This document shows, piece after piece, positions 13,930 through 63,176 of a stretch of 64,000 nt of DNA (position 1 is its first letter; the number at the start of each line of letters is the position of its first letter). The notes under the pieces are model-generated. The model worked only from the letters and a program-made list of their open reading frames with translations, made no database searches and was not told the origin of the DNA. Both the position numbers and the translations under genes were made by a program. Location: positions 58,590,001 to 58,654,000 of the forward strand of contig OX597822.1 of assembly GCA_951406725.2 (NCBI GenBank). Reading direction: 5' to 3'. The DNA comes from Octopus vulgaris (lineage: Eukaryota).

Positions 13930-15786
13930 TGCCTCAGATATTATACCAGCAATAAATGAGGTCAAATACTATTCTACTGTGGGCTCTGATAGATTCCCTG
14001 CTAGCCGCCTGAAGGAATGTAGACACCAACCTCTGGAGAAATTCTTTAGACTCAGGTTATATACCGAAACAACTCCTATCCTAATCTGTCATCCCGGTTT
14101 TCAAACTGGGAAACAGATCCCTCGCAGTCAACTATCGCCCAAACTCACTCACCTCCCATATCATTAAAATGTTTGAAAGAGTGGTAAGATCAAGGATAGC
14201 TGCCTTTCTGGAGATCCACAAACTCCTAAATGGAAATCAGCATCGTTTTCGCTGTGGCAGGGACTGTCTAACACAGCTCTTACACCACATTGAGGATATA
14301 CGTAAAACCTTGGGAACAGGTTCGAACTCTGATGTCATATATCTTGACTTCAGTAAAGCTTTCGACAGCGTTGACCATTATAGCTTATACTCAAATTTGG
14401 CAAATGTTGGAATCCGTGGGAAACTTCTACACTGGATTGAGTATTTCCTGGCGAATAGAACACAACATGTTGTGGTCGATGAAATCCACTCAAGCCCTGC
14501 AAAAGTCACAGAGGACTGTCTTGGGTCTGCTCCTCTTTATAATCTATATAAACGACCTTTCCAGCGCTGTAAAACAGCAAAGTGAAAATATTTGCTGATG
14601 ACACTAAGCTCCAGAAAATCATCAATGAAGAAGACCTAACTCAACTCCAGTCTGATCTATATGCGGTGAATCAATGGGCAGACAAAACCAAAATGCAACT
14701 AACCGAGGGAAAATTTGGGCAGATACATTTTGGAAGAAAGACTATACTAAAACAGCCATACTCTCTTCCTTCAGGGGAACCGCTCACGGCATCTAATAAT
14801 CTCAGTGACCTAGGAGTAATTGTTTATAACAATCTCAGTTGAGTGCCCACATCAACAAAAGTTCGATATAGCTCGTAGGATAAGCTCCTGGATCTTAAGA
14901 ACCTCCCGGTCCAGAGAGCAAGGTGTCATCATTCCACTTTTCTCCTCCTCGAATACTGCTACCCCTGTGGTTTCTCCATACAAAACAAAACATCTCTAAA
15001 ATTGAATCACACTGGTGATCATTCACTAAACGAATTAAGGGCATAACTGATCTTGATTACTGGGACCGCCTTAAAGCCTTGAATCTCTACTCTCTCCAGC
15101 GCCGTCGCGAGCGGTACATAATTTGCACGATGTGGAGAATATCCCGCCAGCATTGCCCAAACGACCTGAACATTAGTTTCAAGGTTCATCCAAGGCTAGG
15201 ACCACAGGCCATAGTCCTCTGCTCAATTTAGGAGCATAACATATTACGGCGGATGACACACTTCGGGATTAGTCTCACCATCTGGTGAATACTTAATCCG
15301 CCATCACACCGGCTGCTGTATAAAAAGGAAGCGGAAGTGGTCTCCGGGAGATGTAGGATTCTCCTAGCTCCTACGCGGATGACCGTGTCAAGTTGCTCGA
15401 GAATTCCTCTTGACAGCAGTACCTGCGTGAGACTATAGAAAAGTCTCGGCGGGAGTTTGATCGGCCGGTAGAGGTGCGCGGACTCCCAATCAGTGCTTGT
15501 GGTGCTGTTGCCGGTCTGCGACACAATTTCTTTTCCTCAACAGGCCCTGCCCTACTTAACATTGACCCAAAACGGATCAAAGAGGAAAAGGATCCCATCA
15601 CTTTTAAATGGAATTTGGCCAAATTTCTTCAAGGAATACCAGATAAGCCACCTATACCTGGATACAGCTCACACAAGAACTCTCTACTTGAAAGCACTAT
15701 AACACAAAACTTGACATAAAAAGGATTTAGGTAATCCTATCAGGTGATGCTATTAAGTTAGACATGGCCTGGTCGAAACATATCTA

Positions 15787-15790: not shown

Positions 15791-15822
<32 letters not shown>

Positions 15823-16019
15823 TAATACTAAGTAATTAAGGGTTTAGCAACGAATTGCCTCACCAACACACCGAATTTAGAAATAGCAGTCAAAGAGATA
15901 TAGCTATTCCTTCTACTAAAAGGGGGATCTCAGTAAAAACACAGCACTTGAAAGGCAAACACAGACAGGTAAGAAAGAAAGAATGAAATGACGGCAATCT
16001 ATCATGCAATTTTAAGTTA

Positions 16020-16111
16020 CCTACGGACGTACGTTTCGAGATCAAGTTTTAGGATAGCATAAGAATTAGAAAATTCTACTTTACCCAAACTTCTTCTCTC
16101 ATCGGCGCAGG
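16020..16111 (-). ncRNA. Type I hammerhead ribozyme motif (copy 1)
   Basis: Reverse complement of 17027-17118. Confidence 0.75.
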
Positions 16112-16610
16112 ATACGACAATTATGAATAATTGTATATTAAATTTTGAGATACTAGAATGCATCATCTCAACTCAGTGTCAGAGCGAGCCAAAGCATGAC
16201 CAGTACCACGAAATTCAAAGTTTGAATGAAAGTTTGTGTCACCAGCCCCCTTCCACCCGCGTGTAGCCAAGACAAAATGCTGCGGTCATTCACTGGGATA
16301 AAATATGGTTATCAGTAATAATAATAAAGGGTGAAATTAATTAATTAGGGATAATTATCAATTACACCAAGTAGATTTCGGCATGTAAAAGCCCCATTCG
16401 AGGAAAATTTAAGTAATACTAAGTAATTAAGGGTTTAGCAACGAATTGCCTCACCAACACACCGAATTTAGAAATAGCAGTCAAAGAGATATAGCTATTC
16501 CTTCTACTAAAAGGGGGATCTCAGTAAAAACACAGCACTTGAAAGGCAAACACAGACAGGTAAGAAAGAAAGAATGAAATGACGGCAATCTATCATGCAA
16601 TTTTAAGTTA

Positions 16611-16702
16611 CCTACGGACGTACGTTTCGAGATCAAGTTTTAGGATAGCATAAGAATTAGAAAATTCTACTTTACCCAAACTTCTTCTCTCATCGGCGCA
16701 GG
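16611..16702 (-). ncRNA. Type I hammerhead ribozyme motif (copy 2)
   Basis: Reverse complement of 17027-17118. Confidence 0.75.
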
Positions 16703-17026
16703 ATACGACAATTATGAATAATTGTATATTAAATTTTGAGATACTAGAATGCATCATCTCAACTCACTTGGTGTAATTGATAATTATCCCTAATTAATTA
16801 ATTTCACCCTTTATTATTATTACTGATAACCATATTTTATCCCAGTGAATGACCGCAGCATTTTGTCTTGGCTACACGCGGGTGGAAGGGGGCTGGTGAC
16901 ACAAACTTTCATTCAAACTTTGAATTTCGTGGTACTGGTCATGCTTTGGCTCGCTCTGACACTGAGTTGAGATGATGCATTCTAGTATCTCAAAATTTAA
17001 TATACAATTATTCATAATTGTCGTAT

Positions 17027-17118
17027 CCTGCGCCGATGAGAGAAGAAGTTTGGGTAAAGTAGAATTTTCTAATTCTTATGCTATCCTAAAACTTGATCTC
17101 GAAACGTACGTCCGTAGG
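17027..17118 (+). ncRNA. Type I hammerhead ribozyme motif (copy 3)
   Basis: Stem I CCTGCG/CGTAGG; core CCGATGA; 61-nt stem II GAGA..AAGTTT..AGAATT-TTCT-AATTCT..AAACTT..TCTC; GAAA; palindromic stem III CGTACG; TC cleavage site. Confidence 0.78.
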
Positions 17119-17617
17119 TAACTTAAAATTGCATGATAGATTGCCGTCATTTCATTCTTTCTTTCTTACCTGTCTGTGTTTGCCTTTCAAGTGCTGTGTT
17201 TTTACTGAGATCCCCCTTTTAGTAGAAGGAATAGCTATATCTCTTTGACTGCTATTTCTAAATTCGGTGTGTTGGTGAGGCAATTCGTTGCTAAACCCTT
17301 AATTACTTAGTATTACTTAAATTTTCCTCGAATGGGGCTTTTACATGCCGAAATCTACTTGGTGTAATTGATAATTATCCCTAATTAATTAATTTCACCC
17401 TTTATTATTATTACTGATAACCATATTTTATCCCAGTGAATGACCGCAGCATTTTGTCTTGGCTACACGCGGGTGGAAGGGGGCTGGTGACACAAACTTT
17501 CATTCAAACTTTGAATTTCGTGGTACTGGTCATGCTTTGGCTCGCTCTGACACTGAGTTGAGATGATGCATTCTAGTATCTCAAAATTTAATATACAATT
17601 ATTCATAATTGTCGTAT

Positions 17618-17709
17618 CCTGCGCCGATGAGAGAAGAAGTTTGGGTAAAGTAGAATTTTCTAATTCTTATGCTATCCTAAAACTTGATCTCGAAACGTAC
17701 GTCCGTAGG
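17618..17709 (+). ncRNA. Type I hammerhead ribozyme motif (copy 4)
   Basis: Identical to 17027-17118, +591 bp. Confidence 0.78.
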
Positions 17710-18449
17710 TAACTTAAAATTGCATGATAGATTGCCGTCATTTCATTCTTTCTTTCTTACCTGTCTGCGTTTGCCTTTCAAGTGCTGTGTTTTTACTGAG
17801 ATCCCCCTTTTAGTAGAAGGAATAGCTATATCTCTTTGACTGCTATTTCTAAATTCGGTGTGTTGGTGAGGCAATTCGTTGCTAAACCCTTAATTACTTA
17901 GTATTACTTAAATTTTCCTCGAATGGGGCTTTTACATGCCGAAATCTACTTGGTGTAATTGATAATTATCCCTAATTAATTAATTTCACCCTTTATTATT
18001 ATATATATATATATATATATATATACGTGTGTGTGTGTGTGTATGCATTTATGTATGTATGTATGTATGTATGTATGTATGTATGTATGCATGTATGTAT
18101 GTATGCACGCACACACATTTGCTCACGCACTCTAGCGTATATACACACGCACATGTACAGAATGATTGGGGTAGTAAAGAGAGAGGGAGAGAGAGAAGGG
18201 GGCAGAATGAATGAAAGTAAAAATAGGTGCTAGGAAAGAAGGTAGAGAAGGAAAGTTACGAAACACAAATTCAAAATGAAGCAGAACGCGCACAAGAATG
18301 ACAGGTAGAAAGCGTGAAAGAGGCAGACTGACAAACAGAAAGCTGATTAGAAAGACAATAAACAGATACATAGTTATATAAACAGAATCGATATACAAAG
18401 AGATAGAGCGGTATATGTATTTATACCACTCTATCAGTAGTATTGTGCA

Positions 18450-21904: not shown

Positions 21905-22285
21905 TATATATTTCGCCCGGCGTTGCTCGGGTTTGTTTCGACCTTTTAGAATTGGAATTTTTGAAAAGTAAAAATTTTGCATTATGTAGCTTGTTATTCT
22001 CTTTAATTGAACATTTTTCTGGTTGAAATACACCGAAAAATGGCGACACAGCAGTCAAAAAAATCGTAAAAAATAGGGATTTTCATAGAAAAAAAAAAGA
22101 ACCTTTTTGATGTAAATAATTTTTTGGTCTTAACATGGTCCGATTTGAATTTTATATTCTACGGAATGAAGAGCAAGCCTTCTTCTAATATACTCGCAAT
22201 TTTGGTCAACTTGCGCCGCAGGGTCTCGGTGGAGATAGTGTTAGTTGAAGGCTACCAAACCTGCCATACTTCAGCCTTATATATT
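21905..22285 (-). mobile_element. Non-autonomous Helitron-like element
   Basis: TCGCCCGGCGTTGCTCGGGTTTGT subterminal hairpin identical to 62802-62826. Confidence 0.65.
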
Positions 22286-24102: not shown

Positions 24103-25830
24103 TTCTGGTTAAATTGTCTGATAGAAGTACATCAACATTTAGCTGCATCTCTAAATGATGTTATCCAGAACCCAGAGCAAATACCCGCCTGGCTGACTGA
24201 TGGAACAACATACCGTCTACCAAAACCTGAAGACACAAAAAGTTCCAAAGAACTACCGACCGATAACATGTCTCAGCACCACCTACAAGACCCTCACATC
24301 CATATTAACTGACAGAATATACGCTTTCCTTGGACAGAGATCTATCCATCCACAAGCTCAAAAAGGCTGTAAAAGGAATGGGTGCAAAGATCAATTACTC
24401 ATAAGTAAAATGACTGTAGAGAATTGCCGGAGCAAAAAGAAAAACCTGAATATTGCATGGATAGACTACAGGAAAGCGTATGATAGTGCCCCACATAATT
24501 GCATACTCAAGGCCCTTGAAACATATAAGATCTCTCCTGTCATCTCCAAATTCTTAGAAGGTAGCATGGCCAAGTGGACAACACGTCTTCTTCTAAACCA
24601 TAGTAATGGGATGATCCAAACTAACAACATCAACATCAAACGAGGCATCTTACAAGGTGATTCCTTCTCCCCATTACTTTTTTGCATGGCCCTGATCCCA
24701 CTCTCAAATGAACTAAATAACACCAGGTATTGGTTCAAAGTTTACAATACGACAATAAACCATCTGTTTTATATGGACGGGCTAAAGCTGTTTGCGAGAA
24801 ATTACGAAGAGCTAGTAGGGCTGCTAACAACTGTTAAAGAATTCAGCAGCGATAAGTGTGCTAAAGCAACTTGTGATAGAGGCGAGCTGAAGCTAACAGC
24901 TTTCATTAAATTAGATGCCGACACTACTATCAAGGAGCTTGACCCACAAGAAAATTACAAATACATGGGGATAAACGAAGGAGATGGTATACTACATGCT
25001 GCTATAAAAGAAAAAATAAGACAAGAATATTACAGGAGAATAAAACTCGTACTAAAAGCTGAACTCAACTCTAAAAATCACATCGACACCCTGGCACTTC
25101 AAGTATTCCAATATAGTTTTAACATCATTAACTGGAATCTTACAGAGCTCCAACGCCTGGACAGGAAGACATGAAAAATACTGACTTCTAAGAACATGCA
25201 CCACCCAAAAGCAGATGTTGATCGTCTGTAGCTACCTAGAAGTAATGGGGGAAGAGGAATGATGCTGGTAGAACTGGTAAAACCTCCACAATAGCAATGA
25301 ACAGGTACTTATCTAGTACAGAGGATTGGACACTGCGACTTGTGTGCAAATACGAAAGCAGCAAAAAAAAAAACACATTCAGTTGTCAAGGAAGCTTGCA
25401 AATTCACAAGGGAACTTGGCATTAACTCTGAAGTAGTTGAAGAACCTGAAACCACTGCCACAAAACAAGCAGAATGTATCAAGCAGACTGCAAAAAAGAA
25501 CAGGCAGAAACAAATTGAGGAGGGATGGAGCCTGAAGCCTCTGCATGGACAGTATATACTTCGAAGTCGAAATGCTGATGTAGATCAAGCAACAACCCAC
25601 TAGCGGCTGAGAAGTTCAGGACTGAAAGCAGAAACTGAAGGTTTCATATTGGCGGCACAAGACCAAAGCTTGCTCACAAAAAATTACCAGGTTAACGTTC
25701 TTCAAAACGGTTATGACCCTAAATGCAGATTCTGCGAAACATTTGACGAAACAATAGACCATCTCGTCTCGGGAATGTCCTGTGCTGACACCAAACGAAT
25801 ATAAAAATCGTCACGATAGGGTAGGTCAGG
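24102..25830 (+). pseudogene. R4/Dong-clade LINE RT region, truncated at both ends
   Basis: ORF 24200-25174: NYRPITCL, AWIDYRKAYDS, GILQGDSFSPLLF, HLFYMDGLKLF (YMDD decayed), YKYMG; then PLHGQY, AETEGFILAAQDQ, CRFC..ETIDHL, RHDRVGQ. Confidence 0.9.
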
Positions 25831-25879: not shown

Positions 25880-26390
25880 TGAAATAGCTAGAAGGCAGCA
25901 CGTCTCACCCGTGCTAGGTTCTTTAGCCACTTTCTCTATGATGTATCGCATGAGGTAGAAGTTGAGTGGATGAATCTTTTCGGGATGGCGCATGTCTGCG
26001 CTTCACTACCAGATAATCCTCTACAAGCACCAAGCTCGTTGCTAATATCTTGGCCAAAATTTTGAACTCTGCATTTAGCAGAGTTATGGACCTAAAATTA
26101 TCAATATAGTCTCTCTTGTTCTGGTCTTTTCTCGGCAATGCCACCGCTCCTCGGTTCACAACACTAGAAATTCTCCCATTCTGTTGCCGGTCGCAGTAAA
26201 CGTTTGCCAAGAAGTCGCAGAACAAGTCTGGTATGTAAGCGTAAAGCTCGTAGAGCAGAACATCCAAACCAGGCGATTTATCACTTGTGCAGTTAGTCAT
26301 TGCTTCCTGTATTTCAGGGGTTGTTATCGACCTTTCGCAGTATTCTGTCTCCATTCGCCACAGCAGTCCGTCGAAGTAGGAATAGTTTTA
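25880..26390 (-). pseudogene. Fragment of a diverged Tx1-clade ORF2 (RT N-terminal part)
   Basis: KSPGLDVLLYELY..PDLF..QQNGRISSVVNRG..NFRSITLLNAEFKILAKIL aligns by eye with ORF2 at 43877 (KSPGLDGLPYEFY..PDLFG..QQNGRIPSSVSRG..NYRPITLLNVELKILAKVL). Confidence 0.88.
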
Positions 26391-36605: not shown

Positions 36606-36731
36606 TGATATGAGATCAAACATAAAATTCGAGTTAACGACTTTATATAACACGCTTCCATACATTTGATCATATATAAATATTTCCATAGCTTCACAAC
36701 ACATAAAAAGAATATATATATAAAAACACAG

Positions 36732-37340
36732 ACATTCGTCCCCAGCCACCTGGATTACTGCTCACAGCTATGGTCACCCATCAGTGTAAAATTAACAGCA
36801 GACCTTGAAGCAATCCAGAGAAGATTCACAAAGAAGATCGTCTTTTTGCAACAGCTTAGCTACTGGGAAAGGTTGAAACAGCTAAGACTCTACTCCCCGG
36901 AGAGAAGATGGGAGAGGTATGCAGTAATGTATACCTGGAAGATCCTGGAAGGAATTGAGCCAAATTTTGGCAGTGAAAGCTACACCAGTGCCAGAACGGG
37001 ACGACACTGCATTGTGCCAAAGATCCCAGCAACGCCATCACGCTTCAGGGCCAGTTACTGCAACAGCCTGGGTTTCAAGGGCCTACAGCTTTTTAATATT
37101 CTCTCAAAGAGTCTGAGGAACCTGCACAAAGTAGATGTAGGGGATTTTAGATCAAAGCTGGACCACTTCCTGTCGAGAGTCCCTGATGAACCTACCTCAC
37201 GACAAGAGGTGCAAATGAGGGTAGCTATATCAAACTCCATTCTTCACCAAGTGCCACAAAGTAGAGGAGGCTCTTAGTAATAACAGTGCAGCAAAGCGGC
37301 GGTGCATCAGCATGGCCGCAGCTCTGAGCTGAAACTGGAG
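36732..37340 (+). pseudogene. 5'-truncated CR1/L2-group LINE 3' end
   Basis: HLDYCSQLWSP, LEAIQRRFTK, LSYWERLKQLRLYSPERRWERY, FRSKLDHFLSRVPDEP. Confidence 0.88.
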
Positions 37341-41673: not shown

Positions 41674-42222
41674 TACACACACACTATATATATCTTTATA
41701 TATATAAAACTGAGAATGTGTGTGTGTGTGTCTGTCTGTCTGTGTGTTTCCCTAAAACTTGGGAACTACACAACCAATTTCATTCAAATTTTACACATGC
41801 CTTACTTAGGGTCCATGTAATTTCATGGGCAAAAAAATGTTCAACTTCTTGCCTAGAGCGAGCCCATAGCAATATCATATCTTCTCCACTATTTCAGTAT
41901 TACGTGTTAAAAGTGAAACAAAAACATTTCTCTATTTTATGTCAGATACTTTCACTTTAACAATAAAAATAATAATAACAATTGAATTATATGTAGTAAG
42001 TAATAATTAAAATCAAACTAAAGTATAATATTATCGTAACATAACAAAAGTAAAAATAACAATTGGTATAAAATTGCAACAATGACTTGAACTTGAATAA
42101 GTGGTTTCACATGAATGGGAATAAATAAAAAATAAAATTTAAGTGCAGAAATGGAATAGTCCAGATGGAGGTGTGCACGGCTTTTACATTAGATTATTTG
42201 CTAATTAGCTAGCATTAAGCAT

Positions 42223-42238
42223 TCTACTGAGTACCGCT
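42223..42238 (+). repeat. 16-bp target/TSD motif TCTACTGAGTACCGCT (copy 1; also 47501-47516 and 52779-52794; 13/16 copy at 52830-52845)
   Basis: Exact repeats at 5278-bp spacing. Confidence 0.95.
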
Positions 42239-42424
42239 TCTGTTAATTGCGTTATTTTTCTGTTTGCGTTGTGAGAAAATTGCTGCCTCCATTTAAGAGA
42301 GTTCGAAGTCGTGATATTATTGTTTGTGCCAACTATTTTGAACAGTGCCCGTTGTAAAACGGTAATTTTCGCCCTACGGGGCAGAAAATTTTGTATTACT
42401 TGGATTTTTGTTACCTTCGAGGTG

Positions 42425-43848
42425 ATGGAGTTCGACTTGACGTCGAAAGACGATTTTCCCGTGATGGGAAAAAGTGAAACCATGGAAAACCCAGTAACCA
42501 AACAGTCATTCTCGGCCGCGGTGGGCGGCGCTATGATAGAGGTCGAATTCAAGATCGAACAGCTGTATGAATACAGGAATCTTGTAAAGGTGGAAGGAGG
42601 AGAGATAAGGCTGGTACCGCCGCAAGCGAAAGTGCAAGAAATCAAGGAAAGGATTGTAACTTATAAAGTGTATAGCTTTAAGGAAAAAAGATTATGGACG
42701 CGAAAAACGAAATTGTTGAGAAGTGCCTGTCCCCGGTGTGGGACAGAATTCGTCACATCGCGAGAGGCGCACGTAGTGCTACGGTAGAGGTGCACTTCGA
42801 CACGGCAGAAGTGGCGAAGGAGGTGTCGTCGTTAACCTTAAAAAGCGACGACATCATGTTGTTACCCTCGTATATGGGGAAACGAACTGCAAAGTTAGTG
42901 GTAGATGACATACCCAGAGGGTACGACATCATGTGGGTGGCAGCGGCGGTACTACACAACATGGAGCGGGAAATTTCAATTCTGCAAATGAGAAGGAAGG
43001 AAGTGGTACGCTGGAAGGGTCAGACCTTGGAACTCCTCGTACAGGCAGAGAACAAGATCTTGGAGAGCCTGCCTGACAGAATTTTTAATGAGGATGGCAC
43101 GTCCATGAGAGTGTCGGTGGAGGGACGTAGACCCAGATGCTTCAAGTGTGGAGAGAAGGGTCACGTCCGGTCCAACTGCATTAAGAAAAAAAGAACAGAA
43201 GAAACGCCTCCTCCAAGTGTACCTGTCACTGAAGGGGAGGAAACAAGCAAGAACAACCAAATGAAGAAGACAAGTACGGAAACGAAAACGGATTCAAAAG
43301 AACCAATGGACTACACACAAGTCACACACAAAAAAAAAAAAGAGAACACCCAGGACTCCCCTCCCCAAACAAGGAAAAAAACAACAAACACAGCAGACAC
43401 ACACATTAAACAAATCCCCCAACCCTACCCCCATGGCACTGTTTTCATTGGAAAACAGTTTGCCAAACCCCTCCCCATAAAACAAGACATCAAAAAGTGC
43501 ATATTGAAAAACGAAAGAATTATAGCCTTTGATGAAAAAAATGAAAAAGTTTACAAATGCTGCAAACTCGCGAGATTTCCACTGTATAGTAGAACCTCAG
43601 ATGGGAAGGCGACCGCTCGTTTCGCGAAGGTAGGGGAGAACGAGTGGAAGGAGGAGGTTCTTCAGGAACACCTGAGGAACCGTCTTATTAGAGATGTAAC
43701 CAAGGAGGTAATGGAGGGTAAACTGGCAATAACCCCGGCAACCACACCCACCCAGAGCCCAGTGGCAACGCCGGTCAAGAACCCTGCAGCAACGGAAGAA
43801 AGGGAAGCAGGCAGATTGAAACTGTCATGCTCCCTCTCGCAACCGTGA
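42425..43848 (+). CDS. Tx1 ORF1 gag-like nucleic-acid-binding protein (~474 aa consensus; 1-nt deletion in A-run at ~42684-42689)
   Basis: MEFDLTSK start; CFKCGEKGHVRSNC (CX2CX4HX4C); frame restored using copy 2's A7 run. Confidence 0.85.
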
Positions 43849-43876
43849 GTATATACATTTCCTTCTCTCACCCACA

Positions 43877-46800
43877 ATGGCTAAGCTGGGCTGTATAAAT
43901 GTACGTGGAATGGGGTCGAAACGGAAACAAATTTGTTTCCTGAACGACCTCACGACACACAGTGTAGATATTGCTATTGCAACCGAGTCCAAGATGAGCG
44001 AGACCCAAGCGTTCTCGCCTCTTCTAAATGGTTTCGAGAAATTTATTTCTCCTAGCCGAGGAAGAGGCAGAGGCGTGGCAGTCTTCATCAGGAAGAGCTT
44101 GGACTTGCAGGTAAGTACTGTCTTTCTGGACCCAGAAGGCAGGCTGGTTGTCCTGGATGTGACTCACGTAAGTAAACAGTCCTTCAGGTTGGTAGCTGTC
44201 TACGCCCCGAACGAGGGTAGACAGACGGGTTTTTTCCGGAACCTGGAGCCCTTTTTAGCGACGTCGAAAACAGTAATCCTAGTAGGGGACTTTAACACTG
44301 TCCTTGAAGCGCACATCGACAGTGTTGGCTCAACCAATAGGAAGGGGAACCCTAGCCTCAAGGGTCTACTAGAGAGCTTTGATCTAGTAGACCGTTACCG
44401 ACTGGATGAGCCGAGCGTTCCACAGTGGACGTGGAGTAACAACGACGGCTCACACAGATCGTATCTAGATAGGATATTTATTAAGAAAAGAGATAAGGAT
44501 ACGTTTAGTTGTCCACAATTTCATATTGTACCTTACTCGGATCACAAATTTGTGACGTGTGAGGTGCAATTAGACAAGTGTCATAGACAGGGACCCGGGT
44601 ACTGGAAGCTGAACAAGGCTATTTTGAATTGTGAAGACTTCCGTACCCGGATTAAGGTGTTAGTTCAGAGGGCATTGTGTGGCACCATCATTAACAATAG
44701 ATGGTGGCACGCCCTCAAAAGAGCCATTCGTTTAGAGTCCGTCAGATTTAGCAATCAGCTAAGGATAGATAGGGCTAGTCTAGAGGGCGATTTAGTCAAG
44801 AATCTAGACGAGGCAATGGAAGCTGGCTCTGCATCCGGAGTGTTGGCGGCAAGGACGGTATTGTACCGTCACCTTAACTCCAAGTACGAAGGTTGCAGAG
44901 TCAGAGCTAAGCTGCGTGCTGGGAAACGAGAAGGTATTAACGTGGCCGGATGGGCCCGTCGTGTGGAGAGTAAGAGAGGCAATAGAGCCTCAATTAAATC
45001 TTTGACTGACGAACAGGGACAAAAGATCTATGGACAGGAGGAGATGCAAAAGTTTCTTCACCAGCATTTCGCTCGCGTGTTCGGGGGTGGTGGTTCGCTG
45101 GATCGGGGGAGGGCCTTAAAGGACTTCCTGGCCGGCGGACCGCGGCTCGCGGGGCGTGAAGTGGAGTGCTGTGAGGGAGCGATCACTCCCGCGGAGATAA
45201 AGGAGATACTGGCCGGATGCGCCGGGGAGAAGTCGCCGGGGTTGGATGGTCTGCCCTATGAGTTTTACCAAAGTATGCCGGACTTGTTCGGGGGAATACT
45301 GGCAGGCGTCTACACGAACTGGCAGCAGAATGGGAGAATCCCCAGTTCTGTAAGCCGGGGAGTGGTGACGCTAATCCAGAAAGACCCGAGCAAGGGGGAT
45401 AATATTAGTAACTACAGGCCCATAACTCTACTTAATGTAGAGTTAAAGATTCTGGCCAAGGTGTTAGCAAAAAGGTTGACGGTTGTCGTGGAGAAACTTG
45501 TAGGGAGAGCACAGACATGTGCAATTCCAGGCAGGTCGATCCAGGACAATCTTCACCTTATACGCTACACCTTAGATAGGGTGGGTAAATTAGCCGGCAA
45601 AGGTGGGGTAATGGTCCATTTAGACCAAAGTAAAGCCTTCGATAGGGTAGACCATGGGTACCTGGCGACGGTCCTCGAAGCGACTGGGCTGGGCCCTGAA
45701 TTTCGCGGGTGGATCTCCGCTATGTATAGCGGCATCAAGTCCACCGTCCAGATAAACGGTTACCTAACGGAACCGTTTTCGATCAAGTGTTCAGTGCGTC
45801 AGGGGTGCCCCTTGTCACCACTTTTGTACGTATTGGCTCTTGAGCCACTGCTGCGAAAGTTGGAGAGGCTGGGGAGTAACTCGGATGAAATCGGAGGTGG
45901 GAGGACGGTGACTGCTTACGCGGATGACGTCACCCTCATCGTGTCCAAAGAGGCCCAACTACCTTGTGTGGAGGAGGTTATCAGAGGATACGAGGCGGTG
46001 GCAGGAGCAAAGGTTAACAAGGACAAATCGGTTGGCTTGCGCCTCGGCACCTGGAGGAGCAAGCCGATATCGTCCAGTGTCGTGGGACACTGGACGGATG
46101 GCCCTGTTAAGTTGCTGGGAGTTTGGTTTGGACCAGACTCCCAAACGGAGAAGAACTGGAGCGAGGTGACGAGCAGGGTGGAGGCCATAGTACGGACCTG
46201 GTCCGGAAGGTCTCTGTCCCTGAAAGGAAGGGCGGAGGTGGTGCAGATGTTTATTGCATCTGTAATCACCTACCGCCTGACCGTTGTCCCTTGCCCCGAT
46301 TCATGGCTTAACAAGTTGGAACGAATCCTTTTCCGCTTTTTGTGGAAAGGAGGAAAGCCACTTGTGAGACGATCCGTTTGCTGCCAAGAACCGTTAAAGG
46401 GCGGGTTAGGGATGCCTTGGTTGATGATGCGCAGACATGCGTTGAGGCTAAGGCACCTCTGGCACCACCTGGAGGGTGATAAGGTGTGGAGTCCGCTGGC
46501 AGAGGGATTTTTCCCGAGACCGGCCTCCTTAGTTAATTTTAAACCCGGTTACATCAAAAGATGGAAACTGACTCCATGGCAAAAAGAGTGCCGACAGGCA
46601 CTCACGCTGATCCACAAGACGGGTAAGGCCGGCTGCGGAAATACCACCTCGGTATTTTATAGAGGGCTGGTGGAGGTAAAAAATGACGACGTCCTAGGAG
46701 GGGCTCTGGGGTTTGATGAAGACCAGCTCGCCAACCTGTTTAAAAAAACTTTCAGGTCGGGGTATTTGGATAATTTCCAAAGATCCCTGGCCTGGCAGTG

Positions 46801-47266
46801 CTACAGGAATGCTTTACCTGTTCGCGAGAAGTTATCGCGGCACGGAGTTCAAGTGCCACCGACGTGTCCAAGGTGCGGGTTGGACGATGAAACCGTCCAG
46901 CACGCCTTTGTTCACTGTCGGAAGTTGTCCGACTTGATAAGTTACGCAGAACACGTGTTGTCCCATCTGGGACGAGTACAGCTGTCGGCTGAGTCTATGA
47001 TTAAGATGATACCGCCAACTGGACTCTCGAAGGAAGGTGAGGCATGTTTCCACTGCACGGTGGCAGTGGTAAAGGAATGCATGTGGAGAACGAGAATGGA
47101 AGGAGCCGCGATAGGGTCCTTCATCTCCGGACCCGGCTTGCTCACTTACTTCAGATATCATCTGAAGAGCAAAATGGGGCTGGAGAAGAGGACCCTGCCG
47201 CGGGGTGTGTACGAGAAAAGATGGAAGGAAGTAGAAAGAAAGGTGGGTGTGAGAAACCCAGCTTGA
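43877..47266 (+). CDS. Tx1 ORF2: AP endonuclease, reverse transcriptase, C-terminal zinc finger (1129 aa, intact)
   Basis: INVRG, VYAPN, GDFN, LDRIF, SDH; KSPGLDG, NYRPITLLN, DQSKAFDRVDH, RQGCPLSP, YADD; CPRC..ETVQHAFVHC. Confidence 0.97.
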   Translation: MAKLGCINVRGMGSKRKQICFLNDLTTHSVDIAIATESKMSETQAFSPLLNGFEKFISPSRGRGRGVAVFIRKSLDLQVSTVFLDPEGRLVVLDVTHVSKQSFRLVAVYAPNEGRQTGFFRNLEPFLATSKTVILVGDFNTVLEAHIDSVGSTNRKGNPSLKGLLESFDLVDRYRLDEPSVPQWTWSNNDGSHRSYLDRIFIKKRDKDTFSCPQFHIVPYSDHKFVTCEVQLDKCHRQGPGYWKLNKAILNCEDFRTRIKVLVQRALCGTIINNRWWHALKRAIRLESVRFSNQLRIDRASLEGDLVKNLDEAMEAGSASGVLAARTVLYRHLNSKYEGCRVRAKLRAGKREGINVAGWARRVESKRGNRASIKSLTDEQGQKIYGQEEMQKFLHQHFARVFGGGGSLDRGRALKDFLAGGPRLAGREVECCEGAITPAEIKEILAGCAGEKSPGLDGLPYEFYQSMPDLFGGILAGVYTNWQQNGRIPSSVSRGVVTLIQKDPSKGDNISNYRPITLLNVELKILAKVLAKRLTVVVEKLVGRAQTCAIPGRSIQDNLHLIRYTLDRVGKLAGKGGVMVHLDQSKAFDRVDHGYLATVLEATGLGPEFRGWISAMYSGIKSTVQINGYLTEPFSIKCSVRQGCPLSPLLYVLALEPLLRKLERLGSNSDEIGGGRTVTAYADDVTLIVSKEAQLPCVEEVIRGYEAVAGAKVNKDKSVGLRLGTWRSKPISSSVVGHWTDGPVKLLGVWFGPDSQTEKNWSEVTSRVEAIVRTWSGRSLSLKGRAEVVQMFIASVITYRLTVVPCPDSWLNKLERILFRFLWKGGKPLVRRSVCCQEPLKGGLGMPWLMMRRHALRLRHLWHHLEGDKVWSPLAEGFFPRPASLVNFKPGYIKRWKLTPWQKECRQALTLIHKTGKAGCGNTTSVFYRGLVEVKNDDVLGGALGFDEDQLANLFKKTFRSGYLDNFQRSLAWQCYRNALPVREKLSRHGVQVPPTCPRCGLDDETVQHAFVHCRKLSDLISYAEHVLSHLGRVQLSAESMIKMIPPTGLSKEGEACFHCTVAVVKECMWRTRMEGAAIGSFISGPGLLTYFRYHLKSKMGLEKRTLPRGVYEKRWKEVERKVGVRNPA

Positions 47267-47702
47267 TCATGGAGGAGAGAGAGGAAGTGGAAGCTGCAGG
47301 GCCTCACAAATTGCCGGGGTGTAAAAACGCCAGTGAGACGACAAGGTTACCTACTGTTGTTTGCTATACTAGTTAAGCAAAGGTTAATATTTTTATAACG
47401 AATTTAAACAATTTTTAAACGATTCTCTTAAATGTTTTTGTATGTATGTCCTGTATTTGTAATTCTGTGTACCGATTTTTATAATCGTAATAAAGAAATA
47501 TCTACTGAGTACCGCTTCTGTTAATTGCGTTATTTTTCTGTTTGCGTTGTGAGAAAATTGCTGCCTCCATTTAAGAGAGTTCGAAGTCGTGATATTATTG
47601 TTTGTGCCAACTATTTTGAACAGTGCCCGTTGTAAAACGGTAATTTTCGCCCTACGGGGCAGAAAATTTTGTATTACTTGGATTTTTGTTACCTTCGAGG
47701 TG

Positions 47703-49126
47703 ATGGAGTTCGACTTGACGTCGAAAGACGATTTTCCCGTGATGGGAAAAAGTGAAACCATGGAAAACCCAGTAACCAAACAGTCATTCTCGGCCGCGGT
47801 GGGCGGCGCTATGATAGAGGTCGAATTCAAGATCGAACAGCTGTATGAATACAGGAATCTTGTAAAGGTGGAAGGAGGAGAGATAAGGCTGGTACCGCCG
47901 CAAGCGAAAGTGCAAGAAATCAAGGAAAGGATTGTAACTTATAAAGTGTATAGCTTTAAGGAAAAAAAGATTATGGACGCGAAAAACGAAATTGTTGAGA
48001 AGTGCCTGTCCCCGGTGTGGGACAGAATTCGTCACATCGCGAGAGGCGCACGTAGTGCTACGGTAGAGGTGCACTTCGACACGGCAGAAGTGGCGAAGGA
48101 GGTGTCGTCGTTAACCTTAAAAAGCGACGACATCATGTTGTTACCCTCGTATATGGGGAAACGAACTGCAAAGTTAGTGGTAGATGACATACCCAGAGGG
48201 TACGACATCATGTGGGTGGCAGCGGCGGTACTACACAACATGGAGCGGGAAATTTCAATTCTGCAAATGAGAAGGAAGGAAGTGGTACGCTGGAAGGGTC
48301 AGACCTTGGAACTCCTCGTACAGGCAGAGAACAAGATCTTGGAGAGCCTGCCTGACAGAATTTTTAATGAGGATGGCACGTCCATGAGAGTGTCGGTGGA
48401 GGGACGTAGACCCAGATGCTTCAAGTGTGGAGAGAAGGGTCACGTCCGGTCCAACTGCATTAAGAAAAAAAGAACAGAAGAAACGCCTCCTCCAAGTGTA
48501 CCTGTCACTGAAGGGGAGGAAACAAGCAAGAACAACCAAATGAAGAAGACAAGTACGGAAACGAAAACGGATTCAAAAGAACCAATGGACTACACACAAG
48601 TCACACACAAAAGAAAAAAGAGAACACCCAGGACTCCCCTCCCCAAACAAGGAAAAAAACAACAAACACAGCAGACACACACATTAAACAAATCCCCCAA
48701 CCCTACCCCCATGGCACTGTTTTCATTGGAAAACAGTTTGCCAAACCCCTCCCCATAAAACAAGACATCAAAAAGTGCATATTGAAAAACGAAAGAATTA
48801 TAGCCTTTGATGAAAAAAATGAAAAAGTTTACAAATGCTGCAAACTCGCGAGATTTCCACTGTATAGTAGAACCTCAGATGGGAAGGCGACCGCTCGTTT
48901 CGCGAAGGTAGGGGAGAACGAGTGGAAGGAGGAGGTTCTTCAGGAACACCTGAGGAACCGTCTTATTAGAGATGTAACCAAGGAGGTAATGGAGGGTAAA
49001 CTGGCAATAACCCCGGCAACCACACCCACCCAGAGCCCAGTGGCAACGCCGGTCAAGAACCCTGCAGCAACGGAAGAAAGGGAAGCAGGCAGATTGAAAC
49101 TGTCATGCTCCCTCTCGCAACCGTGA
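47703..49126 (+). CDS. Tx1 ORF1, copy 2 (1-nt deletion in A-rich run at ~48609-48619)
   Basis: ORF 47589-48758 continues in ORF 48782-49126; run is A4-G-A6 versus A12 in copy 1. Confidence 0.85.
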
Positions 49127-49154
49127 GTATATACATTTCCTTCTCTCACCCACA

Positions 49155-52100
49155 ATGGCTAAGCTGGGCTGTATAAATGTACGTGGAATGGGGTCGAAAC
49201 GGAAACAAATTTGTTTCCTGAACGACCTCACGACACACAGTGTAGATATTGCTATTGCAACCGAGTCCAAGATGAGCGAGACCCAAGCGTTCTCGCCTCT
49301 TCTAAATGGTTTCGAGAAATTTATTTCTCCTAGCCGAGGAAGAGGCAGAGGCGTGGCAGTCTTCATCAGGAAGAGCTTGGACTTGCAGGTAAGTACTGTC
49401 TTTCTGGACCCAGAAGGCAGGCTGGTTGTCCTGGATGTGACTCACGTAAGTAAACAGTCCTTCAGGTTGGTAGCTGTCTACGCCCCGAACGAGGGTAGAC
49501 AGACGGGTTTTTTCCGGAACCTGGAGCCCTTTTTAGCGACGTCGAAAACAGTAATCCTAGTAGGGGACTTTAACACTGTCCTTGAAGCGCACATCGACAG
49601 TGTTGGCTCAACCAATAGGAAGGGGAACCCTAGCCTCAAGGGTCTATTAGAGAGCTTTGATCTAGTAGACCGTTACCGACTGGATGAGCCGAGCGTTCCA
49701 CAGTGGACGTGGAGTAACAACGACGGCTCACACAGATCGTATCTAGATAGGATATTTATTAAGAAAAGAGATAAGGATACGTTTAGTTGTCCACAATTTC
49801 ATATTGTACCTTACTCGGATCACAAATTTGTGACGTGTGAGGTGCAATTAGACAAGTGTCATAGACAGGGACCCGGGTACTGGAAGCTGAACAAGGCTAT
49901 TTTGAATTGTGAAGACTTCCGTACCCGGATTAAGGTGTTAGTTCAGAGGGCATTGTGTGGCACCATCATTAACAATAGATGGTGGCACGCCCTCAAAAGA
50001 GCCATTCGTTTAGAGTCCGTCAGATTTAGCAATCAGCTAAGGATAGATAGGGCTAGTCTAGAGGGCGATTTAGTCAAGAATCTAGACGAGGCAATGGAAG
50101 CTGGCTCTGCATCCGGAGTGTTGGCGGCAAGGACGGTATTGTACCGTCACCTTAACTCCAAGTACGAAGGTTGCAGAGTCAGAGCTAAGCTGCGTGCTGG
50201 GAAACGAGAAGGTATTAACGTGGCCGGATGGGCCCGTCGTGTGGAGAGTAAGAGAGGCAATAGAGCCTCAATTAAATCTTTGACTGACGAACAGGGACAA
50301 AAGATCTATGGACAGGAGGAGATGCAAAAGTTTCTTCACCAGCATTTCGCTCGCGTGTTCGGGGGTGGTGGTTCGCTGGATCGGGGGAGGGCCTTAAAGG
50401 ACTTCCTGGCCGGCGGACCGCGGCTCGCGGGGCGTGAAGTGGAGTGCTGTGAGGGAGCGATCACTCCCGCGGAGATAAAGGAGATACTGGCCGGATGCGC
50501 CGGGGAGAAGTCGCCGGGGTTGGATGGTCTGCCCTATGAGTTTTACCAAAGTATGCCGGACTTGTTCGGGGGAATACTGGCAGGCGTCTACACGAACTGG
50601 CAGCAGAATGGGAGAATCCCCAGTTCTGTAAGCCGGGGAGTGGTGACGCTAATCCAGAAAGACCCGAGCAAGGGGGATAATATTAGTAACTACAGGCCCA
50701 TAACTCTACTTAATGTAGAGTTAAAGATTCTGGCCAAGGTGTTAGCAAAAAGGTTGACGGTTGTCGTGGAGAAACTTGTAGGGAGAGCACAGACATGTGC
50801 AATTCCAGGCAGGTCGATCCAGGACAATCTTCACCTTATACGCTACACCTTAGATAGGGTGGGTAAATTAGCCGGCAAAGGTGGGGTAATGGTCCATTTA
50901 GACCAAAGTAAAGCCTTCGATAGGGTAGACCATGGGTACCTGGCGACGGTCCTCGAAGCGACTGGGCTGGGCCCTGAATTTCGCGGGTGGATCTCCGCTA
51001 TGTATAGCGGCATCAAGTCCACCGTCCAGATAAACGGTTACCTAACGGAACCGTTTTCGATCAAGTGTTCAGTGCGTCAGGGGTGCCCCTTGTCACCACT
51101 TTTGTACGTATTGGCTCTTGAGCCACTGCTGCGAAAGTTGGAGAGGCTGGGGAGTAACTCGGATGAAATCGGAGGTGGGAGGACGGTGACTGCTTACGCG
51201 GATGACGTCACCCTCATCGTGTCCAAAGAGGCCCAACTACCTTGTGTGGAGGAGGTTATCAGAGGATACGAGGCGGTGGCAGGAGCAAAGGTTAACAAGG
51301 ACAAATCGGTTGGCTTGCGCCTCGGCACCTGGAGGAGCAAGCCGATATCGTCCAGTGTCGTGGGACACTGGACGGATGGCCCTGTTAAGTTGCTGGGAGT
51401 TTGGTTTGGACCAGACTCCCAAACGGAGAAGAACTGGAGCGAGGTGACGAGCAGGGTGGAGGCCATAGTACGGACCTGGTCCGGAAGGTCTCTGTCCCTG
51501 AAAGGAAGGGCGGAGGTGGTGCAGATGTTTATTGCATCTGTAATCACCTACCGCCTGACCGTTGTCCCTTGCCCCGATTCATGGCTTAACAAGTTGGAAC
51601 GAATCCTTTTCCGCTTTTTGTGGAAAGGAGGAAAGCCACTTGTGAGACGATCCGTTTGCTGCCAAGAACCGTTAAAGGGCGGGTTAGGGATGCCTTGGTT
51701 GATGATGCGCAGACATGCGTTGAGGCTAAGGCACCTCTGGCACCAACTGGAGGGTGATAAGGTGTGGAGTCCGCTGGCAGAGGGATTTTTCCCGAGACCG
51801 GCCTCCTTAGTTAATTTTAAACCCGGTTACATCAAAAGATGGAAACTGACTCCATGGCAAAAAGAGTGCCGACAGGCACTCACGCTGATCCACAAGACGG
51901 GTAAGGCCGGCTGCGGAAATACCACCTCGGTATTTTATAGAGGGCTGGTGGAGGTAAAAAATGACGACGTCCTAGGAGGGGCTCTGGGGTTTGATGAAGA
52001 CCAGCTCGCCAACCTGTTTAAAAAAACTTTCAGGTCGGGGTATTTGGATAATTTCCAAAGATCCCTGGCCTGGCAGTGCTACAGGAATGCTTTACCTGTT

Positions 52101-52544
52101 CGCGAGAAGTTATCGCGGCACGGAGTTCAAGTGCCACCGACGTGTCCAAGGTGCGGGTTGGACGATGAAACCGTCCAGCACGCCTTTGTTCACTGTCGGA
52201 AGTTGTCCGACTTGATAAGTTACGCAGAACACGTGTTGTCCCATCTGGGACGAGTACAGCTGTCGGCTGAGTCTATGATTAAGATGATACCGCCAACTGG
52301 ACTCTCGAAGGAAGGTGAGGCATGTTTCCACTGCACGGTGGCAGTGGTAAAGGAATGCATGTGGAGAACGAGAATGGAAGGAGCCGCGATAGGGTCCTTC
52401 ATCTCCGGACCCGGCTTGCTCACTTACTTCAGATATCATCTGAAGAGCAAAATGGGGCTGGAGAAGAGGACCCTGCCGCGGGGTGTGTACGAGAAAAGAT
52501 GGAAGGAAGTAGAAAGAAAGGTGGGTGTGAGAAACCCAGCTTGA
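49155..52544 (+). CDS. Tx1 ORF2, copy 2 (1129 aa, intact)
   Basis: Same protein as copy 1 except LWHHLEG to LWHQLEG. Confidence 0.97.
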   Translation: MAKLGCINVRGMGSKRKQICFLNDLTTHSVDIAIATESKMSETQAFSPLLNGFEKFISPSRGRGRGVAVFIRKSLDLQVSTVFLDPEGRLVVLDVTHVSKQSFRLVAVYAPNEGRQTGFFRNLEPFLATSKTVILVGDFNTVLEAHIDSVGSTNRKGNPSLKGLLESFDLVDRYRLDEPSVPQWTWSNNDGSHRSYLDRIFIKKRDKDTFSCPQFHIVPYSDHKFVTCEVQLDKCHRQGPGYWKLNKAILNCEDFRTRIKVLVQRALCGTIINNRWWHALKRAIRLESVRFSNQLRIDRASLEGDLVKNLDEAMEAGSASGVLAARTVLYRHLNSKYEGCRVRAKLRAGKREGINVAGWARRVESKRGNRASIKSLTDEQGQKIYGQEEMQKFLHQHFARVFGGGGSLDRGRALKDFLAGGPRLAGREVECCEGAITPAEIKEILAGCAGEKSPGLDGLPYEFYQSMPDLFGGILAGVYTNWQQNGRIPSSVSRGVVTLIQKDPSKGDNISNYRPITLLNVELKILAKVLAKRLTVVVEKLVGRAQTCAIPGRSIQDNLHLIRYTLDRVGKLAGKGGVMVHLDQSKAFDRVDHGYLATVLEATGLGPEFRGWISAMYSGIKSTVQINGYLTEPFSIKCSVRQGCPLSPLLYVLALEPLLRKLERLGSNSDEIGGGRTVTAYADDVTLIVSKEAQLPCVEEVIRGYEAVAGAKVNKDKSVGLRLGTWRSKPISSSVVGHWTDGPVKLLGVWFGPDSQTEKNWSEVTSRVEAIVRTWSGRSLSLKGRAEVVQMFIASVITYRLTVVPCPDSWLNKLERILFRFLWKGGKPLVRRSVCCQEPLKGGLGMPWLMMRRHALRLRHLWHQLEGDKVWSPLAEGFFPRPASLVNFKPGYIKRWKLTPWQKECRQALTLIHKTGKAGCGNTTSVFYRGLVEVKNDDVLGGALGFDEDQLANLFKKTFRSGYLDNFQRSLAWQCYRNALPVREKLSRHGVQVPPTCPRCGLDDETVQHAFVHCRKLSDLISYAEHVLSHLGRVQLSAESMIKMIPPTGLSKEGEACFHCTVAVVKECMWRTRMEGAAIGSFISGPGLLTYFRYHLKSKMGLEKRTLPRGVYEKRWKEVERKVGVRNPA

Positions 52545-53394
52545 TCATGGAGGAGAGAGAGGAAGTGGAAGCTGCAGGGCCTCACAAATTGCCGGGGTGT
52601 AAAAACGCCAGTGAGACGACAAGGTTACCTACTGTTGTTTGCTATACTAGTTAAGCAAAGGTTAATATTTTTATAACGAATTTAAACAATTTTTAAACGA
52701 TTCTCTTAAATGTTTTTGTATGTATGTCCTGTATTTGTAATTCTGTGTACCGATTTTTATAATCGTAATAAAGAAATATCTACTGAGTACCGCTGTTAGT
52801 TTATTTCTGATCCATAAAGGCTTATAGCTTCAACAGAGTACTGCTTTTTGGTTTACCGTAAGGTTTGTTGTTATTATTATTTCTGTTTAACCATTGTTAT
52901 CACGTTTGGTGGTTCATCGTAAGGGAAGCGTTGTTGTGTTGCATTTGATAAATAATTGTAAACCGTAACCCTTCCCCTTTGGGAGAAGGAGCTTTGGTTA
53001 TTATTTAAAATTGAATTGTGTCCCTGTTTGGAGAAATTGACAATATTTTCACCGTTTACACGGAAGTATTTCTGTTAAAATGTCTTCGATAGAAGAAAGT
53101 CCAAAAATGAACTTCGCTGCAGCCGTCGGATTGTAGCCACACTTCTATACATGAGGGAGGACAAGATACTATTGATTGAAATTACAAGAGACGGGCTAAC
53201 AATTCCAGTCTGTTATATATTTTGAGTATTGTTATCACTAGCGATATCAAGATATAACTTTGTATTTTATGTGTAGATGTATATATATAGATGTACATGT
53301 AATATGTACACATATATACACATTTATACATGCACTAGCACTATGACCCGGCAACGACGGGTCTTTAATGCTAGTATATATATATATATATATA

Positions 53395-55421: not shown

Positions 55422-55565
55422 ACTATATATACGCCAATTGAATGCTAGCTAGCTGTATGTGATTGGTCGGAGATTTGGACAGTATTCGCGTGTATGTGCG
55501 CATGCACGCAGCTGTATATGCATGCAATAGCACTATGACCCAGCAACGCCGGGTCATAGTGCTAG
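55422..55565 (+). mobile_element. Miniature Helitron-like element
   Basis: 3' hairpin TAGCACTATGACCC-AGCAACGCC-GGGTCATAGTGCTA ending CTAG|T; same terminus type as 53335-53374. Confidence 0.65.
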
Positions 55566-61715: not shown

Positions 61716-61721
61716 ACATAC

Positions 61722-62082
61722 AATTTTATAATTATGAGTATAATTATAATTAGGGTTTAGCAAAAATTTGCTTCGCCACATACCGAAATTTAGAAATAGC
61801 AGTTTAAAGTAACTATTTCACTACTATAAGAAAATCTCCCAGATAGTAATACTCAACAACCCACGCAGGTAAAGAGAAAAAAAAAACGAATCTATCCGGG
61901 TTTTAACTGCTATTTCTAAATTTCGGTATGTGGTGAAGTAAATTTTTGCTGAACCCTAATTATAATTATACTCATAATTATATAATTTTATGTATAAGTT
62001 TACCGATAATGTTTTTTGACATACTGAACTACTTGGTAAAATTATTGATTATTAATTAATTAATTTTACCCTTTATTATATA
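61722..62082. mobile_element. Diverged relative of the 591-bp unit, with inverted 5' segment
   Basis: Arms 61722-61808 / 61901-61987; shares GGGTTTAGCAA, TTTAGAAATAGCAGT, CTACTTGGT, TAATTAATTAATTT.ACCCTTTATTAT with 15820-18001. Confidence 0.75.
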
Positions 62083-62793: not shown

Positions 62794-63176
62794 CTAGCAG
62801 TATCGCCCGGCGTTGCTCGGGTTTGTAAGGGAAATAACTATAAAGCATTTTTAGAGAGTTATAGCCAAAAAATAGCAAAAAAATGGAAAAAAAAGTATGG
62901 TAAATTTTTTTGAGAGTTAAAAAGGTCGAGTTGCATCCCCTAGACAGTCTGTGGTTTGTGTTTCTGATTCTCGACCCCATGTCGAATTTATCGATTTTTT
63001 TCAGAACTGGGGGAACTTTTCAAAATTTTTGCTGCGTTAGTTTTGAATTATGACATTGGGCTATGTGTGTGTCAAGTTTCATCAGAATCAGTTGAAAGCC
63101 GTGGTCAGGGTGAGGGTACAACCTAACAGACACACAGACACACACACAGACAAACTGCCGTTTATATAGAGAGAGA
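62794..63176 (-). mobile_element. Non-autonomous Helitron
   Basis: Minus strand begins TCTCTCTCTATATAAACGGCAG, ends CCCGAGCAACGCCGGGCGATACTG-CTAG|T. Confidence 0.78.

Follow-up and report, generated by a model that had tools for sequence, protein, structure and literature searches.

Two tandem copies of a young long interspersed nuclear element (LINE) lie inside a non-autonomous Helitron in a 64,000-nucleotide stretch of the Octopus vulgaris genome (contig OX597822.1, positions 58,590,001 to 58,654,000), hereafter the window. Comparison of this nested locus with its relatives across the genome indicates that the LINE probably enters DNA some 30 bp below TATA boxes and on the sense strand, likely where RNA polymerase II (Pol II) starts transcription, and that one of its branches has independently entered a single Helitron base 23 times, likely by means of target duplications borne on its RNA.

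A first-pass annotation of the window had placed the LINE dimer within a Helitron of 1126 bp, and the architecture on which it relied was verified: the A|TC start at 41693, the hairpin GACCCG-GCAACGA-CGGGTC at 53345-53363, the CTAG ending at 53374 with T at 53375, the repeat period of 5278 bp, the 16-bp motif at 42223, 47501 and 52779, and the remainder (11682 - 2x5278 = 1126 bp). A genome search with the right arm of the Helitron gave 2587 candidates and 40 scored hits, from which the best 30 loci were fetched. LINE sequence was absent from 23 of these, and in 22 of the 23 the left arm directly abuts the motif, which is the contiguous empty junction that the annotation had predicted; the other seven, the window's included, carry a LINE 3' end at the identical base. 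These copies bear out the nesting and, together with the unlinked LINE copies at the same base described below, the proposal that a non-autonomous Helitron serves as a multicopy landing site. Both the empty junction and the LINE 5' junction were also present in contigs of a public run (X3), so that neither is an artefact of the assembly.

The host copies have the features of a Helitron family. The CTAG|T end was found in 26 of the 30 loci, with a hairpin that folds, and the A|TC start in 14 of the 16 recovered 5' ends. Flanks vary among copies and show no evident duplication in a comparison of copies with one another, many of which lie in (TA)n. Autonomous Helitrons with RepHel open reading frames (ORFs) of 1500-1744 aa (PF14214, PF05970) are abundant in the genome; a closely similar hairpin-CTAG|T follows the RepHel ORF directly in 8 of 14 fetched elements and lies further on in 2 more, while the 5' similarity of the host to these elements is only ~76% over 50 bp, part of it microsatellite. 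Many dispersed autonomous elements (L200-L204, L209, L211, L213) score equally in Pfam and keep frames of 1500-1744 aa open, which suggests a recently active family. Exact matches to the target motif number 338 in the 2.8-Gb genome. Among the first 100 of these sites listed, 90 are a T-variant, and all 20 T-variant sites sampled belong to a longer subfamily of the same Helitron. This long subfamily is far commoner than the short one, to which the window's copy belongs, yet it holds only 2 of the 12 filled hosts.

In total, 12 loci carry 23 LINE copies at the identical Helitron base, all with a complete 5' end, which confirms that other copies occupy the same position at unrelated loci. They stand as singles or in arrays of 2, 2, 2, 2, 3 and 6 units. 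The 12 filled hosts differ pairwise by 2.7-5.2% (median 4.0%; empty hosts 4.5%), whereas the closest LINE units across 29 listed locus pairs differ by 0.02-0.17%. Filled hosts are interspersed with empty ones on the host tree, and none of the 66 filled pairs is closer than 2.7%. Because the hosts are diverged and scattered while the LINEs are near-identical, the LINE entered old, already dispersed hosts independently. The suggestion that the 11.7-kb composite could move as a unit is not sustained: host divergence far exceeds LINE divergence, no two loci share both the host haplotype and the same LINE, and at these 12 loci the filled composites did not move as units.

Serial insertion is shown for the arrays at C1, C5, C27 and C9_59.2, where adjacent units carry mixed haplotypes. 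The two units of the window differ at 5 places, of which 3 lie in A-runs and 2 are substitutions. Both carry the same private single-nucleotide polymorphism, and unit 2 has two private substitutions besides; given the shared variant, this dimer may have arisen by local re-insertion or by duplication. A separate array (L118-L123, C9:59.20-59.25 Mb), 0.6 Mb away from the window, comprises at least 10 LINE units with their own 17-bp spacer and nine distinct haplotypes, and runs into an N stretch.

The family is a young L1/Tx1-type LINE. Its ORF2 encodes an N-terminal apurinic/apyrimidinic endonuclease (APE; PF03372), a reverse transcriptase (RT; PF00078) and a C-terminal zinc finger (PF13966), and its ORF1 a CCHC knuckle (PF00098); in a comparison with solved structures the RT scores higher against human L1 (129 bits) than against R2 (89 bits). 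Target duplications are mostly 14-18 bp (46 loci with both copies located). The label Tx1 comes from the first-pass annotation and fits the range of that clade, of which the family is a putative member. None of the protein hits to the RT is named Tx1; the closest named relative is an argonaut protein (64% identity), and the other neighbours, unannotated as it is, come from turtle, fish, coral, lancelet and limpet.

Our census comprises 56 loci, of which 24 were found by an exact 3'-end motif, 2 by a 5' search, 28 by a looser motif and 2 among the one-mismatch hits of a search with a high control (218 vs 275), from which only these 2 were taken. For loci C9_58.89 and C27_23.18 the evidence is the end motif, and C1_206.5, C2_204.05 and C2_204.06 were dropped as chance motif matches in AAT-rich DNA. 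The Helitron site accounts for 12 of the 56 loci (21%), and among copies at least 96% identical to those of the window for 12 of 22 loci and 23 of 42 copies. Kojima 2015 calls a family target-specific when the same flank type recurs in >20% of copies, a share exceeded family-wide (12/56), in the young group (12/22) and among copies with the 5' tag that we call type A (23/23). The picture of a Helitron-targeting LINE does not extend to the family as a whole, which has off-Helitron copies below TATA boxes; one branch is Helitron-specific and the whole family is not.

The off-Helitron copies point to a common property of the sites. The 34 off-Helitron loci with a left duplication reduce to 21 distinct upstream contexts, ten regions without one having been excluded. 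A TATA-like 8-mer (at least 7/8 matches) starting between -34 and -26 was found in 13 of the 21, against 1.2 expected from the same flanks, and 0 of 200,000 simulations reached 13. The box lies on the sense strand and starts at exactly -30 in 8 of the 21 contexts. In controls, windows further upstream gave at most 3/21 and the antisense strand 1-2/19. Two later cases from outside the sample have the box at -30 (C3_97.8) and at -33 (L227, a member of the related LINE family B, whose ORF2 is ~57-60% identical to that of the window's LINE). A TATA box at -30 marks a transcription start, and insertion outside the Helitron is therefore likely to occur at Pol II starts.

Sister branches with 85-94% identity are each confined to a multicopy, promoter-like site of their own. 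Three of these sites are tandem repeats, another is a family dispersed on C27 and C2, and the last is a CCAAT/TATA repeat also used by family B. In the tandem repeats L101, L156, L108 and L175, every unit (~0.5-0.6 kb at L101, L156 and L175) combines a TATA box with a LINE landing site 30 bp downstream of it. An Rfam search of 8 target loci, L101, L156 and L108 included, returned 0 matches. At L107, L177 and L178 (C27:22.8-23.2 Mb), the TATA-like box of the group-5 site is immediately preceded by a hairpin like that of a Helitron 3' end. The CCAAT/TATA promoter repeat (L098, L102, L225-L227, L229), which two LINE families with ORF2 proteins ~40% different use near the same position, is possibly a long terminal repeat (LTR); the term LTR-like is tentative because an integrase-like piece beside C9_89.3 scores 23.7, below the Pfam cut-off of 25.5.

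Elements with near-identical enzymes occupy different targets, and the target tracks the 5' tag (23/23 copies) better than the endonuclease. All 23 exact matches of the type-A tag in the genome are at Helitron sites; its sole one-mismatch match (C11:20.9 Mb) proved to be unrelated sequence. The group-2 site is used by three endonuclease types, one endonuclease type is found on two sites, and a copy whose endonuclease is two residues from that of the Helitron branch sits on a CCC site. At C7, C5 and C1 a host variant in the right copy is matched by the family version in the left duplication. At a C27 junction the target copy is followed by a second, partial tag, and the same tag variant recurs on C5 with the same 5' haplotype. 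Locus C7_109.6 has a group-4 tag inside a group-2 site, and at C2_134.4 and C2_182.8 old tags are stacked that agree with the new target over their first 6-7 bases. Overall, at 9 of 45 loci (7 when a triplicate is counted once) the first four bases of the right copy do not match those of the left, and several of these mismatches resemble the site of another donor. Such mismatches suggest that the RNA carries donor flanks at both ends, and we infer that the left motif copy at other loci is partly RNA-derived. For the 3' end, AATAAA lies six bases before the end of the element and 3' cleavage takes place 10-30 nt downstream of that signal, so that cleavage of the RNA would fall within the right duplication. 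The variant that such an RNA would carry is present in 10 of 12 filled hosts and in 7 of 97 empty ones, a difference that is confounded with host subfamily.

The Helitron site has a history of its own. Translation of the long-subfamily arm below the site yields a piece of ORF1 with 29-40% identity to the LINE's own ORF1; tblastn detected it in 18 of the 20 long hosts that were sampled (best E 5e-25; 100 bits vs at most 30 for shuffled queries). The fragment has at least 150 scored copies in the genome. Among 12 fetched candidates, 4 were longer, ORF2-bearing members of family B, which match the captured fragment at 74-80% DNA identity. The full-length relative was absent from the public protein sets searched and was found in the genome itself. 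By DNA alignment, the arm in the window is an internally deleted form of the same piece; its origin rests on this alignment because the short arm gave no significant tblastn match to ORF1 (E 5.2). The right arm is thus a captured 5' end of an older, related LINE. The 16-bp target, moreover, nearly repeats the start of the family-B 5' untranslated region (UTR) about 50 bp downstream (15/16 in L136). Copies of the long subfamily have a TATA-like box 30-31 bp above the site (score 6-7/8 in 19 of 20 sampled, 16 of them at -31); the left arm of the short subfamily is without the 49-bp TATA-like segment that precedes the site in the long one, and the short subfamily has lost the box.

Since the right arm is a captured family-B 5' end, this fragment has travelled with the Helitron and dispersed the site, and the present LINE lands in front of it. 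The idea that a LINE rides the Helitron, which is not supported for the full composite at the 12 loci, survives in altered form for this older 5' fragment. Landing ahead of another LINE 5' end was also seen at C2_182.8, C27_22.9, C27_22.93 and C9_48.0.

These observations can be accommodated in the following scheme. The host promoter would start transcription within the left duplication, and AATAAA near the element end would direct 3' cleavage inside the right one. The 3' flank of the RNA may then pair with the nicked strand and prime reverse transcription, and the 5' tag may pair with the top strand to complete integration. Offspring would in this way prefer parent-like sites, a form of target memory, and by re-entering the parent's own site could build arrays of 2 to 10 or more units. 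Before that, the Helitron would have acquired its LINE 5' end from an older, related element, in the long subfamily downstream of a TATA-like box, and carried it to hundreds of loci, giving one branch a dispersed multicopy target; the capture is shown, and the order of events is what we infer. More tentatively, and with less confidence than in the scheme just given, we suggest a wider generalization: a promoter-less LINE may be steered to Pol II starts, its address being inherited outside the protein through RNA-borne duplications, so that specificity would arise in one step when a copy enters a multicopy element. The Helitron with the captured LINE 5' end would then have seeded hundreds of addresses, and Tx1 elements in Mariner, Harbinger and LTR elements may be unrecognised cases.

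Several points weigh against this account. The census was built on 3'-end motifs and top hits and has missed more diverged copies, and the copies are recombinant mosaics, so that donor-offspring pairs are untraceable. The TATA window was picked after inspection of the data, 8 of the 21 contexts do not reach a TATA score of 7, and some contexts are related (C4_112.4 with C9_89.3, C27_22.82 with C2_14.65), which brings the independent count nearer to 19. Because 10 of the 12 filled hosts belong to the short subfamily, with a TATA score of only 5-6 at -30, TATA targeting cannot explain the Helitron site today. The transcription start and the poly(A) site are those that sequence motifs predict, contigs of public runs that are not on record as RNA showed neither a poly(A) end nor a start site, and single first-base mismatches could be non-templated additions. 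Finally, the endonuclease type that we call alpha (S29, V30, V106, S149) is strongly tied to the Helitron site, occurring in 22 of 23 copies and, for first units, at 12 of 12 on-site against 2 of 8 off-site loci.

The last point invites the explanation that the alpha endonuclease itself recognises the Helitron motif, as reported for Tx1L and Tx1D, the 5' tag being a passenger from one master copy. The alpha segment is indeed retained in those 22 copies even where ORF1 and the 3' half come from other haplotypes. Residue 149, aligned to L1-EN, falls in the loop after the GDFN motif, a loop that we take to contact DNA in that enzyme. Kojima 2015 (PMC4494074), moreover, holds that the endonuclease mainly sets target choice. 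However, alpha copies with a type-B head lie off-site, at sequences like the C9_59.2 spacer; among the on-site copies, one carries another endonuclease (9 changes); family-wide, endonuclease type is no predictor of target; and the region matching the specificity hairpin of L1-EN is identical between alpha and beta types. We therefore consider control by the endonuclease unlikely. We give little credence to the view that the enzyme reads DNA shape or open chromatin, such as an AT-rich bend 30 bp upstream, without transcription machinery or RNA flanks, and hits repeats because they are many. The contexts with a weak TATA score would suit it, as would the number of targets that are repeats (tandem 0.5-0.6 kb units, an LTR-like repeat) whose transcription is only putative, but the TATA peak is sharp and strand-specific, each branch keeps its own repeat though all are available, and the commoner long Helitron subfamily, with its TATA-like box, is hit less.

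Two further alternatives concern the Helitron loci themselves. That RepHel proteins mobilised the LINE-filled Helitron whole would explain the shared position, both Helitron ends being intact around the dimer, autonomous Helitrons with similar 3' ends being abundant, and a LINE fragment having earlier spread inside the same Helitron. The divergence of the filled hosts and their scatter among empty ones, together with a LINE content that varies by locus (1-6 units, mixed haplotypes), make this very improbable. It is equally hard to credit that only the first insertion at each locus was targeted, with arrays arising when the 16-bp duplications recombine unequally or when a read-through dimer RNA is copied: the private variant shared by the window units, which are only 2 substitutions apart outside A-runs, is as this would predict, and such an origin can hold for the window dimer alone, but the clearly different haplotypes of adjacent units at the four array loci named above need serial insertion. 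We thus retain repeated, independent entry of the LINE, probably below TATA boxes and, at the Helitron site, likely directed by its RNA-borne duplications.

Features of the nested locus and a neighbouring Helitron (window positions).
Feature	Position	Strand	Remarks
Helitron left arm	41693..42222	+	A|TC start; (TG)/(TCTG) microsatellite; short subfamily
Left copy of 16-bp target motif	42223..42238	+	target-site duplication
LINE unit 1	42239..47500	+	type-A 5' head; AATAAA six bases from end; no poly(A)
Middle copy of 16-bp motif, between the two units	47501..47516	+	
LINE unit 2	47517..52778	+	AATAAA at 52767-52772
Right copy of 16-bp motif	52779..52794	+	host's own site
Captured 5' UTR and internally deleted ORF1 start of a family B LINE, in right arm	52826..53195	+	start codon at 53080; junction of the deletion near 53129
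Helitron 3' hairpin and CTAG|T end	53345..53374	+	close to ends of the genome's autonomous RepHel Helitrons
Separate short Helitron, both ends	62794..63176	-	5' end like those upstream of autonomous RepHel ORFs (L202, L210)

In unit 1, ORF1 starts from an ATG at 42425, encodes a CCHC knuckle and has a frame break in an A-run near 42683, and ORF2 (43877-47266) is intact, with APE endonuclease, RT and zf-RVT domains. In unit 2, ORF1 starts at 47703, likewise with a CCHC knuckle and broken in an A-run (frame break near 48610), and ORF2 (49155-52544) is again intact; each ORF2 has 1129 aa. Besides the dimer's host, the first-pass annotation had listed three short elements with the same terminal architecture. 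The one tabulated has both Helitron ends; that at 55422-55565 has the 3' end and no TC start, and that at 21905-22285 (minus strand) has the hairpin and neither TC nor CTAG. Elsewhere in the window, an older RT fragment at 25922-26282 (minus strand) is 70% identical to the ORF2 of the dimer, and further RT-like fragments lie at 14085-14585, 24197-25174 and 36651-37277. Nested direct and inverted repeats that are 99.8-100% identical, including a 946-bp inverted pair (15821-16766 vs 17908-16963), occupy 15821-18002 and represent either a very young duplication or an assembly feature. An inverted repeat resembling a miniature inverted-repeat transposable element, with 93-bp arms of 94% identity, is at 61716-61993.

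Insertion of Tx1 elements into other mobile elements has precedents. As described in PMC4494074, Xenopus Tx1L targets Tx1D (piggyBac), crocodilian Tx1-Mar and SINEU target Mariner-N4_AMi, Tx1-9_AMi targets Harbinger and Tx1-8_Crp targets LTR elements; tandem copies around the duplication are also described there, as is a 5' extension from the host transposon, for which co-transcription is proposed. The octopus LINE is similar in being an APE-type element at one position of a multicopy transposon, with a 16-bp duplication and tandem copies sandwiching it. It differs from those cases in that the host is a Helitron, that the site is a captured LINE 5' end, and that sister branches use different sites with a common TATA at -30; the word Helitron has 0 occurrences in the main text of that paper. 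Keno, a Tx1-clade element in U2 snRNA genes (PMC4494074), likewise represents Tx1-type insertion into multicopy targets transcribed by Pol II, transcription at our sites being putative; Keno uses one RNA gene, whereas the octopus family enters many sites of TATA type that are unrelated to one another, the distance to the box being fixed. The Helitron itself resembles the non-autonomous Helitron1 in starting with A|TC, in its 3' hairpin followed by CTAG|T, in carrying a foreign fragment and in having candidate autonomous partners with similar 3' ends. It differs in that the captured piece is a LINE 5' end that is now the landing site of a related LINE.

Parallels for RNA-borne flanks are found in R1. 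In Drosophila, R1 forms tandem arrays separated by the duplication, and its RNA includes target sequence from upstream, which anneals (Stage and Eickbush 2009, PMC2718515). Incorporation of as much as 14 nt of downstream target occurs, and off-target sites share 4-9 bp of identity (PMC2718515, PMC7265360), and the RNA tail of R1Bm and SART1 anneals to the target (PMC7265360). The octopus arrays are like those of R1 in their duplication spacers and, putatively, in an RNA that carries target sequence. R1, however, has one fixed ribosomal DNA target set by its endonuclease, whereas in the present family near-identical enzymes are found at several unrelated targets and the flanks appear to depend on the donor. 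Preference for transcription starts is shared with Mu, the P element and Tf1, which favour Pol II promoter or start regions, with tethering proposed (PMC7337890); P dimers form at strong sites by double insertion (10.1101/158386). Those elements are DNA or LTR transposons, whereas the octopus LINE would move through target-primed reverse transcription (TPRT) and lies in sense orientation within a few bases around -30. For an octopus, 13 recently active L1-Tx1 families have been listed (PMC13282606, which contains no target analysis in the parts consulted). We found no Helitron-targeting or TATA-targeting LINE in a literature search that lay largely outside subscription papers, Repbase Reports, figures and supplements.

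Acquisition or switching of targets by LINEs is usually credited to slow change of the endonuclease. In this family near-identical enzymes are found on at least 5 unrelated multicopy sites, and intact ORF2 copies and junction variants separate the enzyme from the RNA flank, so that the question of enzyme or flank can be put to the test by simple swaps. If the proposed role of the flanks is true, it would offer a lead for flank-programmable, RNA-mediated gene insertion. At the Helitron site, two classes of transposon feed each other, in that a rolling-circle element spreads a LINE 5' end and a related LINE lands there; and a TPRT element that finds transcription starts would, if confirmed, be a new route of promoter disruption and capture in cephalopod genomes.

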